DNA of 64,000 nt from a phage. The stretch is from assembly GCA_012813795.1 (NCBI GenBank), contig GCA_012813795.1_4087.1; one strand, 5' to 3'. This document shows, in pieces, positions 3,482 to 24,074 of this stretch. The first letter of the stretch is position 1. Every line of letters starts with the position of its first letter. Both the position numbers and the translations under genes were made by a program. Below the pieces are notes generated by a model. That model was not told the origin of the DNA and searched no databases. It worked only from the letters and a program-made list of their open reading frames with translations.

Positions 3482-4294
3482 TTAAATTACATAGGGTTTA
3501 TAGTAATGAATCTCATTTGCTATTGCAGTGAAAACTTTCTTATTAAATCTTTCACCATAATCACGAAGTGATTCACCTTCTACGCTTTCAATAAAGTAAT
3601 TATATACTGGTAGTCGTGCACTGTCAATACCTATAAACGATTTCATGTAAATTTGTACTAAACGATTCATACCTGAATTTAAACATTCAACATCAAAGTG
3701 CTTGATACCTTTGTCTAAGTGCTTGAATGCATTGATGATACCACGCTTGAAATCACGCTCCATAGTACTGAATAGATTCTCAGGAAACACTGTAATCGGA
3801 GACATGGATTTAAGAATGTATGTATCTTTTGCATTCTTGATGTACTCAATGAAGCAGTAGTTTACATTAGGCTCAATTGAACGGTCTGCATTATGATACC
3901 AGTACTTAAACTCGCTGTACTCTGCGAACTTATGCTGGCGTAAGGCATTACAATCCTCACACAGTGCAGTCATGTTCTCTTTATCATTACCACCCTGAAG
4001 ACAGTCAAGTACATTATGGTCTAACGTCATGCGTACAAGGCGTTTCCCTTTAAGTACATAAGGTCTGAATTTATAACGGTCTTTAGTACTGTGCTTATGT
4101 AAAGTGAATACTACATTGGATTCACCACAACAATCACATTTAAAGCCGTCACGAGACATTACATGAATGAGTTTGCGAGTATTAGGTCCAAACTCAGATT
4201 TAGTAATATTATCCACAATTTCTGATGGTTGGTAATATTTTGAATTCAGTCGAATCAATTCATCGATAGTACTCATTTTAGATTTCCTCTTCAC
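3482..4294 (-). CDS. HNH-family endonuclease (putative homing endonuclease)
   Basis: CxxC ... DHNVLDCLQGGNDKENMTALCEDCN resembles the HNH zinc-binding core. Confidence 0.6.
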   Translation of the reverse strand: MKRKSKMSTIDELIRLNSKYYQPSEIVDNITKSEFGPNTRKLIHVMSRDGFKCDCCGESNVVFTLHKHSTKDRYKFRPYVLKGKRLVRMTLDHNVLDCLQGGNDKENMTALCEDCNALRQHKFAEYSEFKYWYHNADRSIEPNVNYCFIEYIKNAKDTYILKSMSPITVFPENLFSTMERDFKRGIINAFKHLDKGIKHFDVECLNSGMNRLVQIYMKSFIGIDSARLPVYNYFIESVEGESLRDYGERFNKKVFTAIANEIHYYKPYVI

Positions 4295-4502
4295 TGCATT
4301 CGGTGATTACTTTTTTAACCTCTATAACTCTTACTAAATGATACCCGCACCTATGGTTGAAATTAAACATGTTTACTAATGCATCAGCTTCTGTTTTTGC
4401 CCTAAATTGGAGATTATATATGTGCATAGTTTCATCGAGTGAGGCTTCACCTTTGCTATTGAAAACAATTTTACAAACTTCAAACCTTACTCGATAAATC
4501 AT
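4278..4502 (-). CDS. hypothetical protein
   Basis: 74-aa ORF. Confidence 0.4.
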   Translation of the reverse strand: MIYRVRFEVCKIVFNSKGEASLDETMHIYNLQFRAKTEADALVNMFNFNHRCGYHLVRVIEVKKVITECSEEEI

Positions 4503-4708
4503 TGAGTTTGTCCTACAATAAATTTCGCTTTAATATCACTTTTGTAACACCACATTTGTTCTTCACTAACTGTCATCCAAGAATTTTTGTTTACTTGTTC
4601 GTATGTACTATCACGTACAGAAAAACATTGGTTTAATGAATTCATAGGGGTAATTTGTACACCGGATTGCATTGAAAGAGCAACAATTAAAAAGATTGTA
4701 GTATTCAT
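4499..4708 (-). CDS. hypothetical secreted or membrane protein
   Basis: 69-aa ORF with hydrophobic N-terminus. Confidence 0.4.
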   Translation of the reverse strand: MNTTIFLIVALSMQSGVQITPMNSLNQCFSVRDSTYEQVNKNSWMTVSEEQMWCYKSDIKAKFIVGQTQ

Positions 4709-5323
4709 TGAATGTTCCTTAATAGTTAGTCATCCATCTCTTCGAGATGTCTGTTCGCTTCTAATACTACGTATTCTACGCGAATGATTAATAACTGTCA
4801 AGGACTTTTAATATTGACGGGATTTGAGGAAGGGATTTTTCTTCCCCCCGCTGGGAGGGGAATTTGACGCTGATGGTATCAGAGCTATTGCATTGAAGAT
4901 TACTCTTAATGAGTACGAAAGCGGGTCATCCTGTTTCTCTCTACTTCAGTTTCATATGACGGTCTACACTTTTAAACATAGTGTATCTTCATTAAGTATC
5001 TATGCAATCAAATACTTAATGTGAGTACTCAAATTTTGGACGCAACTTTCCTGTACAAAATTTGATAACTCTCCCTTAGATAATTCGTAAGGTGTTATCC
5101 TTATATGTCTATCTAGGAACCACCAGCCATCCTAACGTGGTTCTTTATAGTGCCGCATTGCCGTGAGGGGTTCATAATATGCCCACATCTGACGGGTTTC
5201 TTCTGCACTTCGCACTGCTGGACTGCTCAACTGCCCTCTACATTTTCGAGTGGATCAGGTTCATGTCATCCATGCCAACAGAATTGTACAATATCATTGT
5301 ATCATGAACATCCATTTTGTCCC

Positions 5324-5352
5324 ATAAAAAAAGGGCTGACCTAAGTCAACCC
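5324..5352 (-). terminator. rho-independent terminator after sigma gene
   Basis: GGGUUGAC/GUCAGCCC hairpin (one G-U pair) followed by U7 on minus-strand RNA; A/T runs on both sides. Confidence 0.55.
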
Positions 5353-5359
5353 TTTTTCT

Positions 5360-6322
5360 TTAGAAATCTTCGTATTCGTACCCTTTTTCAAGTACTATTT
5401 TTTTAAGCTTTTGAATAGCTTCACTATATTTTCGGTGCACAGATGAACGGGACTTAACAATGTTTCCTTTATCATCAACATATCCATTATCAGAAATTTC
5501 ACGAAGGGTTTCTGCTTTGTAATCCCCAAGACCATGAACACGCATGATAATTTCTCGTTCTTTAGTACTCAATTCGTCAATGATTTCTGTGATTGCATAA
5601 CGTAATGGATTACAAATGCTATCAACATTAAGGTTATAATCACGAGCAGATGAACTCAGAATATCCCCAAGGGTTCCGTCTGAATCTGAACCCAGTTGTG
5701 CATCAAGAGTCGTATATGCATTCTGGTATAACAAACAGTTCTTAACGTGCTGAAGCTCGATACCAGTACTCTCAGAGATTAATTCTGGTGTTGGTCGCTT
5801 ACCGTGTTCACGTTGATATGATTCATTAAATCGACGTACTTGGATGTTATGAACGCTCATATAACGTGGTAAGTACACCATGTAATTTGCATCTGAACTT
5901 TCATTATACATAGTCATATAAACGGACGTTGTTGCATATGTAATGAATTTGACATTCTTACTAAGATCAAAGGTTTTAAGTGCTCGCATAAAACCTTCTA
6001 CGCCATATGCAATTTTATCTTCAAACGGAATATAACATGTACACTTTGAAGCAACGTCAACAATCATACCATAGTTGTAACGAAGTAATAGGTCAGTATT
6101 CTTTTTTACATTAATCCCAGCACGAATCTCTTCTATGATAGATTCATTAGTTACACCTGCTGGACGTTTAATACTGATATTACTTTTACTACGAACTTTA
6201 TGTGGAATATCATCTTCAATAACTTCTGATGGTTCAATTGCTTCCAATGGATTGACTTCTTCATTCGCAAAACATTCATCCAGTACTTCTTCGGAAATTG
6301 CGTTTAAGTCTAGTTTCTTCAC
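5360..6322 (-). CDS. sigma-70 family RNA polymerase sigma factor
   Basis: 320 aa; region-2-like segment and C-terminal region-4 HTH (LSTKEREIIMRVHGLGDYKAETLREISD...RSSVHRKYSEAIQKL). Confidence 0.7.
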   Translation of the reverse strand: MKKLDLNAISEEVLDECFANEEVNPLEAIEPSEVIEDDIPHKVRSKSNISIKRPAGVTNESIIEEIRAGINVKKNTDLLLRYNYGMIVDVASKCTCYIPFEDKIAYGVEGFMRALKTFDLSKNVKFITYATTSVYMTMYNESSDANYMVYLPRYMSVHNIQVRRFNESYQREHGKRPTPELISESTGIELQHVKNCLLYQNAYTTLDAQLGSDSDGTLGDILSSSARDYNLNVDSICNPLRYAITEIIDELSTKEREIIMRVHGLGDYKAETLREISDNGYVDDKGNIVKSRSSVHRKYSEAIQKLKKIVLEKGYEYEDF

Positions 6323-7973: not shown

Positions 7974-8013
7974 TGTGTTTTTCCTTTTTGGTTTTCAATT
8001 AAAGTAGGAGTAC

Positions 8014-8042
8014 ATTGTACTCCTATATTTCAGTACTGTCAA
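8014..8042 (-). promoter_or_regulatory. sigma70-type early promoter
   Basis: TTGACAGTACTGAAATATAGGAGTACAAT on minus strand (17-bp spacer). Confidence 0.5.
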
Positions 8043-11429: not shown

Positions 11430-11469
11430 AAATATTTTATAAGCATTTCAACAATGAGGGGTTTGTTTT

Positions 11470-12627
11470 ATGTCTAGAACCATAGCTGATACCGGTGAAT
11501 ACAAGTTCGGTGAATGTGGTTATATCGTGGATGGTGCTTTACTAATCGATGGAACCAAATTAAAAAATATAAGAATTTACAGGCAGCGTAGTTATAAACT
11601 ATTTGATATTATAGATCCTGTAACAAACAAAATATATAGACGCGTACAAATTACTTCTTATGATAAGGTAGGAAATTTACTTAACTATAAAAAATCCGAT
11701 GATGAATTATTGGATGTTATTGCAAAGAATACTTTCTTTGTTCGTGGATACACTAATCATTTGAAACCTACAGATCCAACAGGGTTTGTAACTAAATTCC
11801 AATTACACAAAACGATATTTGGAAACTCCGATGTTACTTTTGATATGTACACACCAACTTGTTCAATTATTGATCGTGATATAGATAATATTTTAGTTAA
11901 TCCAGTTCATGTTGGGGATACTGAAATATCGGGTAAACTGTTCAATGCTGGACAAACCATCAACACAACAGGAATGACAATTACTGTAAAATTTTCAGAT
12001 GGGTCCGAGTATTCAACGAGTACAATAGTCAATGATGAATTCATTATAACAGTACCGGAAATTATGTCAACCGGAACTGCAACTATAACTCTTACGTCTG
12101 ATTTTTATAATACAAAAAGCGTTGATTTTAATATATTAGATGTTGGTGAGGATGACGGCTTAACCACTACTGTATCAGTAACTACATTCAGTACTGGGCC
12201 TGGTGATGTGTATAGTGCAAGAATCCCTGCTGATGTACATGGGCGTGGTAATAACTTAGCTATTCAGGTATATGATAATCATAATAATTTGGTATCTGCT
12301 GGCATTAATGTTAGCTCTACTGGTGATATTACAGTAACAATATATGATAATACACCTATAAAACTAAGTATATTGGGTAGTACATTACAAACATCTCCAT
12401 ATGTACAAAATGTCTCTTCTTCTGAATGGACACGCAATGGTGAAATGTATGAAATTAATATATCCAGTACTGGACACTTAAAAGAATTTGTTTTTGTTCA
12501 AGTATATGATAATAACAATGATGCAGTTCAATGTGAAATTCAGCTTGATGATGATGAGAATGTTACAATTACTTCTGTCGAAGCATTTGATGCAAAGATT
12601 GTAGTGTTTGGTTATAACAAACAATAA
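11470..12627 (+). CDS. hypothetical beta-rich repeat protein (possible virion or surface protein)
   Basis: 385 aa, the only substantial plus-strand gene; GAGGGG RBS; Thr/Ser-rich repeated beta-like segments; hairpin terminator right after stop. Confidence 0.55.
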   Translation: MSRTIADTGEYKFGECGYIVDGALLIDGTKLKNIRIYRQRSYKLFDIIDPVTNKIYRRVQITSYDKVGNLLNYKKSDDELLDVIAKNTFFVRGYTNHLKPTDPTGFVTKFQLHKTIFGNSDVTFDMYTPTCSIIDRDIDNILVNPVHVGDTEISGKLFNAGQTINTTGMTITVKFSDGSEYSTSTIVNDEFIITVPEIMSTGTATITLTSDFYNTKSVDFNILDVGEDDGLTTTVSVTTFSTGPGDVYSARIPADVHGRGNNLAIQVYDNHNNLVSAGINVSSTGDITVTIYDNTPIKLSILGSTLQTSPYVQNVSSSEWTRNGEMYEINISSTGHLKEFVFVQVYDNNNDAVQCEIQLDDDENVTITSVEAFDAKIVVFGYNKQ

Positions 12628-18696: not shown

Positions 18697-19465
<769 letters not shown>

Positions 19466-19468
19466 ACA

Positions 19469-19601
<133 letters not shown>

Positions 19602-19602
19602 A

Positions 19603-19702
<100 letters not shown>

Positions 19703-19746
19703 ATAGGCACATACGGGTCTGCTTTTAAGCTACTGATTCGGGAATC

Positions 19747-19792
<46 letters not shown>

Positions 19793-19799
19793 CGTTCTT

Positions 19800-20018
<219 letters not shown>

Positions 20019-20027
20019 TAATACCCT

Positions 20028-20429
20028 TTAGTAGTTTAAGTCAGCGGCGTTGAACACACCGAGTGAAGTCTTACCACGTAGTTTAGGGGAAATGACATAT
20101 TTTGTCAATGTCTTTTTACCGTACCAGTACTCGAAATCTTTTTCTTCTACATACGGATTAGGGAAATCCCATTTGCGTTCTTTATGAATTTGCTTGGCCT
20201 GGACTTGAAGCTTTTCAACTTCATCTGGTGGTACAGTATCTACATTATTAAACTGCATGTACATACCTTTTAACCCATCAAGAATTAATTTTTCAGTTTC
20301 TTTAACTAATGTAATCTTTTCGATTCCAGTACTGATATTCATGTAGTCATCTACATAACCATTCCAGATAACAATCTCTGGATTACCTTCGATTCCCTGA
20401 AGCATCTTGATCAAGTCATTCTTTTTCAT
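20028..20429 (-). CDS. hypothetical protein
   Basis: 133-aa ORF. Confidence 0.5.
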   Translation of the reverse strand: MKKNDLIKMLQGIEGNPEIVIWNGYVDDYMNISTGIEKITLVKETEKLILDGLKGMYMQFNNVDTVPPDEVEKLQVQAKQIHKERKWDFPNPYVEEKDFEYWYGKKTLTKYVISPKLRGKTSLGVFNAADLNY

Positions 20430-20437
20430 TTGAATTC

Positions 20438-22078
<1,641 letters not shown>

Positions 22079-22263
22079 ATCACCAACTTTAATTAAAAAA
22101 ATGGATGGTGACGCTTTTAAACGCCGCTGTTAATTCAGCTTTATAACCACCCGTTTTAACTTGCCTTTCGGCTACCTTGACGTGGGGCGTACAGGCTACT
22201 AAAAGCAACTTCTGTAAACATATTTCCACGCCTTACCATTTTCATTATATCAGTACTTTTATC

Positions 22264-23385
<1,122 letters not shown>

Positions 23386-23386
23386 C

Positions 23387-23570
<184 letters not shown>

Positions 23571-23574
<4 letters not shown>

Positions 23575-24074
23575 TTACGTTGCATCCAATGTGAGCCAGT
23601 CCATACTTTTTTCTTTTCACGTTCTATCTGTCGTTTTTTTAATTCTTCATCCCACAGGATATTGTCATTCAAGAAATAGTCATATAGTTCTTTTAATTTC
23701 AAATTATCAGAAAATGCGGGAAAGTACTTATTATCGCATACCAAGCTCTCTTGGAAATGTGCATCTTCATCTGTGATGTATCGATATGTAAAAATTCTAT
23801 TCGGGTTTGGATAGATACCATTTGTTTCAGAGAAACATTTTCTAAGTAGACTTTTACCAAAATCACAGATAATAGTGTCTTTACGAACAAAATTCCAGCG
23901 AGTAACCATTGTAATTGTTAGAGTTTGATAATTCTGATCTAAGCTTATTCGATGTTCACCATCTTTGTGCTTATAGTGATAAGTGCCCTGTTTTCGAACT
24001 GTTCGTTCAAACTCATTAATATTAATTTTACTTAAAATTTCAGTAATACTTTCCGGTACATGCGTAATGAGCAT
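23571..24074 (-). CDS. hypothetical protein, possible EE-x-FFQ family relative
   Basis: 167 aa; internal DEDAHFQESLVCDNKYF resembles the family motif. Confidence 0.5.

Follow-up and report, generated by a model that had tools for sequence, protein, structure and literature searches.

We analyzed the block at positions 4709–5359 of a 64,000-nucleotide (nt) stretch of phage DNA (NCBI GenBank assembly GCA_012813795.1, contig GCA_012813795.1_4087.1; hereafter, the window denotes this whole stretch) and found that in all likelihood it holds a gene for a structured non-coding RNA (ncRNA) on the minus strand, as predicted from a comparison of homologous sequences. The RNA very probably constitutes a new, previously undescribed family. 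Overall, we tentatively favor the explanation that this conserved ncRNA gene acts as an origin or primer transcript that would form an RNA–DNA hybrid (R-loop). At 99.9% identity, the window matches Escherichia phage A4, an Asteriusvirus of the 121Q/PBECO4 'Rak2-like' jumbo phages, and window position w corresponds to A4 position 326259 – w on the opposite strand.

A preliminary description of the window had singled out the block as lacking minus-strand open reading frames (ORFs) and as rich in GC, and both observations held. With its 651 bp, the block is the window's longest run free of minus-strand ORFs of 40 amino acids (aa) or more, the second-longest such run (11430–11906) being occupied by a plus-strand gene; the only minus-strand ORFs within the block are two of 31–32 aa. 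The GC content was 40.1% for the block and 41.8% for the RNA core against 34.5% for the window, which places the block at the 99.8th percentile among all segments of 651 bp. Two short Cys-rich ORFs had been named as the only plus-strand ORFs, and short ORFs are indeed present, including one of 64 aa with nine Cys (5150–5344), but three rather than two are listed, the others being 4824–5024 (66 aa) and 5179–5307 (42 aa). The intrinsic terminator described at the end of the block is also genuine (hairpin 5352–5333, –24.7 kcal/mol, z = –6.1, with 0 of 200 shuffled sequences equally stable); however, it is the terminator of the neighboring sigma factor gene and lies at the upstream end of the block in the direction of transcription.

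We compared 39 diverse members of the RNA family in an alignment in RNA orientation (A3), on which all covariation counts are based. The consensus structure consists of 72 base pairs in 14 helices with two pseudoknots. The proportion of paired cells was 95.8%, compared with 75.6% in shuffled alignments and 38–46% when the pairing partners were slid by 1–3 columns. Similarly, 55 pairs were changed on both sides (40.6 shuffled, 18–32 slid), both-side changes occurred in 528 cells (141 shuffled, 62–85 slid), and the covariation score was 0.547 (0.197 shuffled, 0.07–0.10 slid); none of 500 shuffles attained any of the observed values. Mere inspection of the first alignment already revealed several helices (GAAGUAC/GUACUUC, GAACCAC/GUGGUUC and CAAGCGU/ACGCUUG), and a scan for covarying anti-diagonals returned over a dozen. 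When the window copy was folded singly, the gain over shuffled sequences was modest (z = –2.4), and the case for the structure therefore rests on the comparative evidence. Two 5′ hairpins, with loops GAAAAUGUA and CAUAGUUUGUA, were misaligned by MAFFT, and their support comes entirely from reading of the alignment.

The strand of the RNA was assigned to the window-minus strand, which is also that of the neighboring genes, because of the promoter described below and the wobble counts in the curated helices. In these helices, the ratio of G·U to A·C was 262:26 on the minus strand, a count biased somewhat by the fact that the helices were chosen allowing G·U on that strand. The structure was 95.8% paired on the minus strand versus 86.9% on the plus strand. 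An early wobble count on the MAFFT alignment was indecisive (189 versus 158), and RNAalifold energies were equal on both strands. The predicted elements of the RNA, in 5′ to 3′ order, are as follows.

5215–5281, minus strand: 5′ domain with helix H1, CUGUUGG (5281–5275) pairing with CCAGCAG (5221–5215); supported by covariation
5149–5209, minus strand: helix H2, AGUGC (5209–5205) pairing with GCACU (5153–5149); 99% paired, three compensatory pairs
5117–5143, minus strand: hairpin H3/4, GAACC...GGUUC; compensatory changes in 5/5 pairs (helices 3–4)
5071–5113, minus strand: nearly invariant GAUAGACAUAUAAGG (5113–5099), hairpin H5 (UAAG 5103–5100 with CUUA 5091–5088) and invariant UAAGGGAG (5078–5071)
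5023–5071, minus strand: helix H6, GAGUU/UACUC, enclosing the optional hairpin module M with loop UACAGGAAAGUUGCGUC; compensatory changes in 5/5 pairs
4990–5021, minus strand: 13-bp hairpin H7; 11/13 pairs compensatory (helix 7)
4887–4964, minus strand: pseudoknotted core, GACCGUCAU; supported by covariation
4814–4872, minus strand: 3′ region, two direct copies of CGUCAA (in 4872–4864 and 4821–4814) around a C-run/G6 hairpin

Helix H1, which shows compensatory changes in 6/6 pairs, encloses a hairpin at 5274–5262 and a second hairpin with the conserved loop GAAAAUGUA (5247–5239), followed by GUUGAG (5231–5226). Helix H2 encloses the conserved GAAACCCGUCAG (5200–5189), a covarying hairpin with loop CAUAUUAUGAA, and CGGCAAUGCGGC (5163–5152). 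Hairpin H3/4 is the helix whose covariation was spotted first by eye (GAAGUAC/GUACUUC, CAAGCGU/ACGCUUG and others). Depending on the member, the hairpin module (loop UACAAUAUAGAUCCGUC) is inserted at one or the other of two sites, or at both (A3 columns ~351–385 and ~519–556); in the window copy, it lies at 5030–5065. In the first pseudoknot (helix 8; 99.1% paired, 6/6 pairs compensatory), the H7 loop AUUGCA (5008–5003) pairs with UGCAAU (4892–4887), a partner located ~115 nt (110–120 nt) downstream. In the second, GUCAU (4960–4956)/AUGAC (4929–4925) crosses GAGAG (4941–4937)/CUUUC (4921–4917) in the window copy, both crossing helices being placed within helix H11 (UGAAG 4948–4944/CUUCA 4898–4894). 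In the family alignment, the corresponding helices are GUUGC/GCAAC and GAGAG/CUUUC, both 100% paired, and helices 10, 11 and 12 are 99.5–100% paired with three to four compensatory pairs each. The invariant blocks of the pseudoknotted core (GACCGU, GAAAC and ACCCGC) belong, together with UAAGGGAG, GAUAGACAUAUAAGG, CGGCAAUGCGGC and GAAACCCGU, to the long invariant joints between helices. In the 3′ region, CCUCCC (4858–4853) pairs with GGGGGG (4849–4844) to form helix 14, in which U·G alternates with C-G, and the invariant G6 lies ~40 nt ahead of the core end. According to our reading of the alignment, the two CGUCAG motifs of each RNA change in parallel among paralogues (UGUCAG twice, GUGUCA twice or CUUCAAG twice).

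The signals flanking the core indicate how the RNA might be transcribed. The elements of the predicted unit and its two neighbors are as follows.

5360–6322, minus strand: gene for a sigma-70 family RNA polymerase sigma factor, the upstream neighbor (ORF; annotated as a sigma factor in A4, 121Q and UE-S1)
5326–5352, minus strand: intrinsic terminator of the sigma factor gene, stem GGGUUGAC/GUCAGCCC, loop UUAG, U7 (from its fold; annotated as a terminator in UE-S1 and G17)
5296–5324, minus strand: putative promoter P1, –35-like TGGGAC (5324–5319), 17-nt spacer, extended –10 TGaTACAAT (5304–5296) (from its motif)
4810–5289, minus strand: structured ncRNA core, ~480 nt (from the nhmmer match and covariation)
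4735–4809, minus strand: 3′ flank, an AT-rich stretch of ~40 nt, promoter P2 and two hairpins (from the sequence)
4499–4708, minus strand: first small gene (69 aa) of the next minus-strand array, the downstream neighbor (ORF; start codon at 4708)

The stop codon of the sigma factor gene (5360–5362) lies just ahead of the terminator, and since this gene has a terminator of its own, the block looks like a separate transcription unit. Transcription from P1 is predicted to start near position 5289. The motif TG(A/G)(A/G)AC-17-TGnTATAAT (in minus-strand reading) was found upstream of the copies in 83–86 of 92 distinct upstream regions, and no further promoter of this type was found within the 64-kb window. 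P1 fits a class of promoters with a 'TGAAACG –35' and a classic –10 that was reported in phages CBB and GAP32, where it chiefly precedes genes for DNA synthesis (PMC5259590). Downstream of the core, the sigma-70 promoter P2 (TTGACA 4801–4796, TAGAAT 4778–4773), which serves the next gene, overlaps a hairpin at 4784–4754, and a second hairpin (4749–4735, CAUCUC-UUC-GAGAUG) is followed by the ribosome-binding site and the start codon of that gene. Similar 3′ hairpins, with loop ACGNAGUGA, are located after all the other copies, those of other genera and of bacteria included. Averaged over 91 copies, the last 40 nt of the core are the richest in GC (46.6%) and hold the G6 run, and the next 40 nt have a GC content of 24.6%; the latter stretch also contains the promoter-like boxes of the next gene. 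These observations identify the block as an independent minus-strand transcription unit with a predicted P1-driven ncRNA of ~480–550 nt.

A gap of ~650 bp without ORFs is kept at this place in all Asteriusvirus genomes, with 87–93% identity, and a core of ~450 bp is ~70% identical in ORF-free gaps of other genera, where it stands beside different genes. The latter carriers include Serratia phage BF, an Erwinia phage, Pectobacterium phage CBB, Cronobacter phage GAP32, Yersinia phage fHe-Yen9, Xanthomonas phage XbC2, Salmonella phage 7t3 and a Klebsiella phage; the family occurs in Rak2-like jumbo phages of Asteriusvirus, Mimasvirus, Eneladusvirus, relatives of RaK2 and others. We collected copies by two pattern scans of IMG/VR, a profile search with nhmmer, and scans of metagenomes and of bacterial genomes, the latter with one genome for each species. 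As a working definition, members were sequences with a full-length match to the family hidden Markov model (HMM), the blocks GACCGU, GAAAC, ACCCGC, UAAGGGAG, GAUAG and the G-run, and the covarying helices. At least 109 distinct full-length copies were obtained, with 4–5 full-length copies of 435–570 nt in each Rak2-like genome; the first 62 copies fell into 35 clusters at 88% identity, with a median pairwise identity of 66%. The window copy matches the HMM over its full length (4810–5292, HMM positions 2–479, E = 4e-109) and carries the invariant blocks and helices. Repeat search, blastn and nhmmer found no second copy within the window. The blastn matches at four places per record were considered as terminator look-alikes, and this explanation was rejected; pattern scans revealed true paralogues elsewhere in the genomes. 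In public records, the gap is blank in some genomes and filled with differing short 'hypothetical protein' ORFs in others. In the UE-S1 record (ON568341.1), a 'repeat_region' is annotated inside two copies of the RNA (80759–80916 and ~311.4–311.9 kb), which is the sole trace of the family in public annotation.

A comparison with Rfam, one of the checks proposed in the preliminary description, returned no known family: none of the 4227 models of Rfam 15, including ROOL, GOLLD, OLE, HEARO, group I and II introns, RNase P, tmRNA and 6S, matched the family. At the gathering threshold, the whole window yielded just five tRNAs, all located elsewhere; positions 4400–5700 yielded weak terminator-like or chance matches at E up to 10, none of them across the core; ten diverse members yielded nothing within the element at E up to 0.05; and the four bacterial loci described below yielded a thiamine pyrophosphate (TPP) riboswitch nearby and nothing else. 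ARAGORN detected no tRNA or tmRNA gene in 4709–5359. A self-splicing intron of group I or II was also considered and rejected: the flanks are a complete gene with a terminator and a separate gene with a promoter, the flanking genes vary between copies, and no intron model matches. Searches of the full-text literature yielded neither a description of this RNA nor a transcriptome of the Rak2-like phage group.

We further evaluated the coding potential of the family. The longest ORF had a median length of 56 aa across the 109 members, compared with 54 aa in shuffled sequences, and every frame of all 109 copies contained at least two stops. The possibility that the block is a decayed gene, a frameshifted ORF or inert foreign DNA, to which the short hypothetical ORFs called inside it in some GenBank records might point, can thus be practically dismissed: the ORF lengths are those of shuffled sequences, the called ORFs are inconsistent between records, and substitutions spare base pairs rather than codons. 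The remnant of foreign DNA that the preliminary description had offered as one interpretation finds no support: purifying selection acts on the sequence in every Rak2-like genus, and the raised GC content follows from the RNA helices; nor does a frameshift-corrected ORF, which it had also envisaged, explain the region, given the stops in every frame. The structured RNA that it had offered as the other interpretation is upheld by the 39 aligned homologues with their 14 covarying helices and two pseudoknots, the conserved promoter and the lack of coding potential, and the covariation analysis against related phages that it had proposed gave compensatory changes in 55 of 72 pairs.

Next to the fold itself, the layout of the copies in jumbo-phage genomes bears on function. 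All copies within one genome are co-oriented, at a typical distance of ~60–85 kb from one to the next. They are located at 35, 99, 177, 261 and 341 kb in GAP32, at 30, 93, 174, 259 and 335 kb in Serratia phage BF and at 25, 93, 174, 260 and 335 kb in Yersinia phage fHe-Yen9-04, and three uncultivated genomes show similar series of five copies. The gaps measure 53–86 kb in most of these six genomes, the smallest being 44 kb (Yersinia phage fHe-Yen9-04), and the chance of a smallest gap this large for five random points on a circle is 0.0004–0.005. Genomes in which four copies were detected have one gap of ~162–165 kb, or two regular steps, so that a copy may have been missed there; CBB and UViG_3300042923 show such gaps of ~160 kb. 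In Asteriusvirus, the copies are located at 90, 193, 248 and 327 kb in 121Q and, on one strand, at 65.1, 125.8, 205.6 and 321.0 kb in A4, the last being the window copy. Each positional copy is conserved across genera, and identity amounts to 86% when one slot is compared between genomes, as against 67% between the slots of a single genome; therefore, the paralogues are old and each of them has been retained. Most copies are co-oriented with their flanking genes (44/57 on the left and 43/57 on the right); in one positional group, the flanking genes are on the opposite strand, yet the copies keep the genome-wide orientation.

We also found full-length copies in four bacterial genomes, namely the chromosome of Serratia fonticola GTA-SR07, Serratia sp. 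2723, Silvania hatchlandensis and an Enterobacteriaceae metagenome-assembled genome. These copies score 245–296 bits, are 64–73% identical to phage copies, and retain the phage-type promoter and the 3′ hairpins. Among complete E. coli genomes, 2 of 5426 had a copy, and no copy was found on plasmids. The copies lie, one each, in integrative islands of ~10 kb that adjoin rof/tilS, thiM (with the TPP riboswitch), dapE/arsC, corC or ffs, as exemplified by the chromosome of E. coli LR-29-1 (~14.1–24.5 kb of locus L153). In S. fonticola, rof is duplicated at the island junction. The islands encode a large serine recombinase or a tyrosine integrase and often a CI-like repressor, an HTH_35 protein or ParB-like proteins, and the island RNA runs convergently into the CI-like repressor gene. 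No protein common to all islands was found, annotation with PHROG and Pfam being uninformative, and the one island protein tested (286 aa) had no phage homologue. The islands could be satellites or sensors of jumbo phages.

As old paralogues are retained at fixed, regular and co-oriented positions, the RNA may act in cis on DNA at its own locus, to which we assign about an even chance. By analogy with known systems, it may be an origin or primer transcript, a more doubtful proposition. In such a mechanism, the RNA would be transcribed from a middle-type promoter, like the transcripts of T4 ori(uvsY) and ori(34); the folded body and the invariant G6 would then place its 3′ part as a persistent R-loop at the downstream AT-rich stretch, like ColE1 RNA II; and the R-loop would offer the phage replisome a primer or a clamp-loading junction. 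The islands would carry a copy in order to be replicated by an infecting jumbo phage. The class of the promoter, the position of G6 in the GC-richest 40 nt followed by the stretch of 24.6% GC, and the presence of copies in islands able to exploit the phage replisome fit this origin model. In its fullest form, which remains speculative, a class of ~500-nt doubly pseudoknotted RNAs marks and helps to fire evenly spaced, co-oriented, RNA-primed origins in 350-kb jumbo phages, and islands have copied the element in order to be replicated upon infection.

Several points weigh against this explanation. The start of replication at the element is a proposal by analogy, and the expression, ends and timing of the RNA are predictions from its sequence. 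The link of the –35-like motif of P1 to a middle class or to a phage sigma factor is presumptive, and the extended –10 alone could suit host sigma-70. With its two pseudoknots, the 500-nt fold has more in common with a ribozyme or a ribonucleoprotein (RNP) scaffold than with a primer; no structure is known for T4 origin transcripts, and we know of no origin transcript so elaborately folded. The genomes are syntenic, so that their even spacing amounts to approximately one evolutionary observation, and the spacing is less regular in Asteriusvirus, where gaps range from 61 to 115 kb. Moreover, gene orientation does not flip at the elements, and as copies were detected by sequence patterns, divergent extra copies could be missed.

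Nearly as likely as the origin model is a large ornate RNA of the ROOL, GOLLD or OLE kind that acts in trans. It is possible, if somewhat doubtful, that the RNA leaves its locus to function as a ribozyme or RNP scaffold, or as a multimer that assembles by itself, in which case pseudoknot 1 could be an intermolecular kissing contact as in phi29 pRNA; perhaps phages and islands carry it as an aid to any mobile element, for example against host defense. In its size, helix number, two pseudoknots and long invariant single-stranded joints, the RNA resembles typical catalytic or scaffold RNAs, and a hairpin module at alternative insertion points resembles the peripheral tertiary-contact elements of large RNAs. 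The RNA is phage-borne, as ROOL and GOLLD often are (PMC12286853), and it is kept in bacterial islands without a shared neighboring gene. However, a diffusible RNA leaves five old, separate, co-oriented and regularly spaced paralogues unexplained, since one would expect redundant copies to disappear or to cluster, and none of the large-RNA models of Rfam matches.

Action in cis could also concern transcription rather than replication. In an element similar to HK022 put or to EAR, the nascent RNA would make its own polymerase resistant to terminators, so that each copy starts read-through into the downstream gene array, or would insulate neighboring transcription domains. Each copy directly follows a terminator and a promoter, no terminator precedes the next genes, and most copies are oriented as their flanking genes; the presence of several copies per genome, each heading an array, is reminiscent of putL and putR. 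We nevertheless regard this as unlikely, as the next gene has a separate strong sigma-70 promoter downstream of the RNA, the copies of one positional group are flanked by genes of opposite orientation, and the island copies run convergently into a repressor gene; furthermore, the RNA is ~7 times longer than put (~70 nt) and ~4 times longer than EAR (~120 nt). Alternatively, the conserved molecule might be single-stranded DNA, that is, a strand-specific site for primosome assembly or one similar to a single-strand origin, which folds once the strand is exposed during replication. Covariation with G·T wobbles would fit folded DNA as well, and co-orientation with regular spacing would suit a lagging-strand signal; but a conserved extended –10 promoter is directed into the copies, the terminator of the upstream gene suggests a separately transcribed unit, and the single-stranded DNA origins known to us are shorter and lack multiple pseudoknots. 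This last alternative is highly improbable.

Additional features of the window were noted. Two genes downstream of the RNA, a minus-strand ORF of 270 aa (3482–4294) is annotated as an HNH endonuclease in the records of 121Q and ELP-22, and the A4 record splits its counterpart into several short ORFs; possibly, this is a mobile gene for a homing endonuclease that is present near the RNA in Asteriusvirus alone. A cluster of five tRNA genes occupies 19131–23260 on the minus strand (Thr-TGT, Asn-GTT, Met-CAT and two Ser), and ARAGORN assigned the unusual anticodon ACT to one of the Ser tRNAs (20972–21063). Repeats of 50 nt in two families (D2 and D3, at 22716–23603 and 16312–36832) look like common starts or ends of small paralogous ORFs located amid the tRNA genes. 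The minus-strand motif TTGAC(A/T)...CAGTACTGTATAATGT is repeated at 2534–2564, 2883–2920, 8012–8042, 21673–21710 and 22534–22571, and these sites resemble strong early sigma-70 promoters of one family, in which AGTACTG is conserved right before the –10. A sub-threshold Rfam match to the plant microRNA precursor MIR162_1 (4413–4516, E = 0.002) is a plain hairpin within a coding region and is almost certainly due to chance.

Few non-coding RNAs combine large size with an intricate fold, and every new class of them has led to new biochemistry. The present family has more than 100 diverse members with unusually clean covariation and occurs in cultivable E. coli phages (A4, 121Q, PBECO4 and phAPEC6). 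We know of no RNA family for which a comparable genome-wide layout has been reported, and this layout poses a testable question, namely how 350-kb phage genomes start and organize replication or another process at the DNA level. The island copies with their phage-type promoter hint at parasites or sensors of jumbo phages; if the origin model, including the islands, is true, these islands would become the first candidates for satellites of jumbo phages. At the loci of the RNA, the present annotations of this phage group are incorrect, being blank or containing spurious short ORFs, and an ncRNA feature is warranted.

One comparable system is Pseudomonas jumbo phage PA5oct, for which a highly transcribed 'putative lncRNA' (long non-coding RNA) supported by RNA-seq, ncRNA002, was described (PMC7318152); the lncRNAs of this phage are the only reported long ncRNAs of a related jumbo phage. 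ncRNA002 (21951–22401) resembles our RNA in being an ORF-free segment of ~450 nt in a distantly related jumbo phage, co-oriented with its neighbors, and a search of it with the family HMM (nhmmer --max) gave no meaningful match, the best (E = 7.1) being elsewhere in the locus; neither a fold nor a family has been reported for ncRNA002. ROOL, GOLLD, OLE and HEARO share with the family their size class, many helices, pseudoknots and frequent location in phages or prophages. However, their covariance models match neither the window copy nor the ten members, a regular multi-copy layout has not been described for them, and the hosts here are jumbo phages and islands of Enterobacterales, Xanthomonas and Stenotrophomonas. 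Both phi29 pRNA, which has covarying loop–loop pairs, and HK022 put, whose sites are multiple and follow directly on promoters, are phage RNAs acting at the DNA or machine where they are made, although they are ~70–174 nt in length and unrelated in sequence.

The origin model draws on two further systems. ColE1 RNA II is a folded pre-primer of ~500 nt with a G-run, and the likeness lies in a promoter-driven transcript of this length for which folding matters and in a G-run that possibly seeds a hybrid near the 3′ end. In contrast, the family has no sequence or Rfam similarity to RNA II, is set in phages, and is multi-copy and pseudoknotted. The T4 origins ori(uvsY) (oriF) and ori(34) (oriG) combine a middle promoter with a downstream unwinding element, and the likeness, in a T4-related myovirus, would lie in several dispersed sites at which a transcript from a non-early promoter is followed by an AT-rich stretch. 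Whereas the T4 sites are not mutually homologous and their transcripts have no known conserved fold, in the present family a pseudoknotted RNA of ~480 nt is found at every site.

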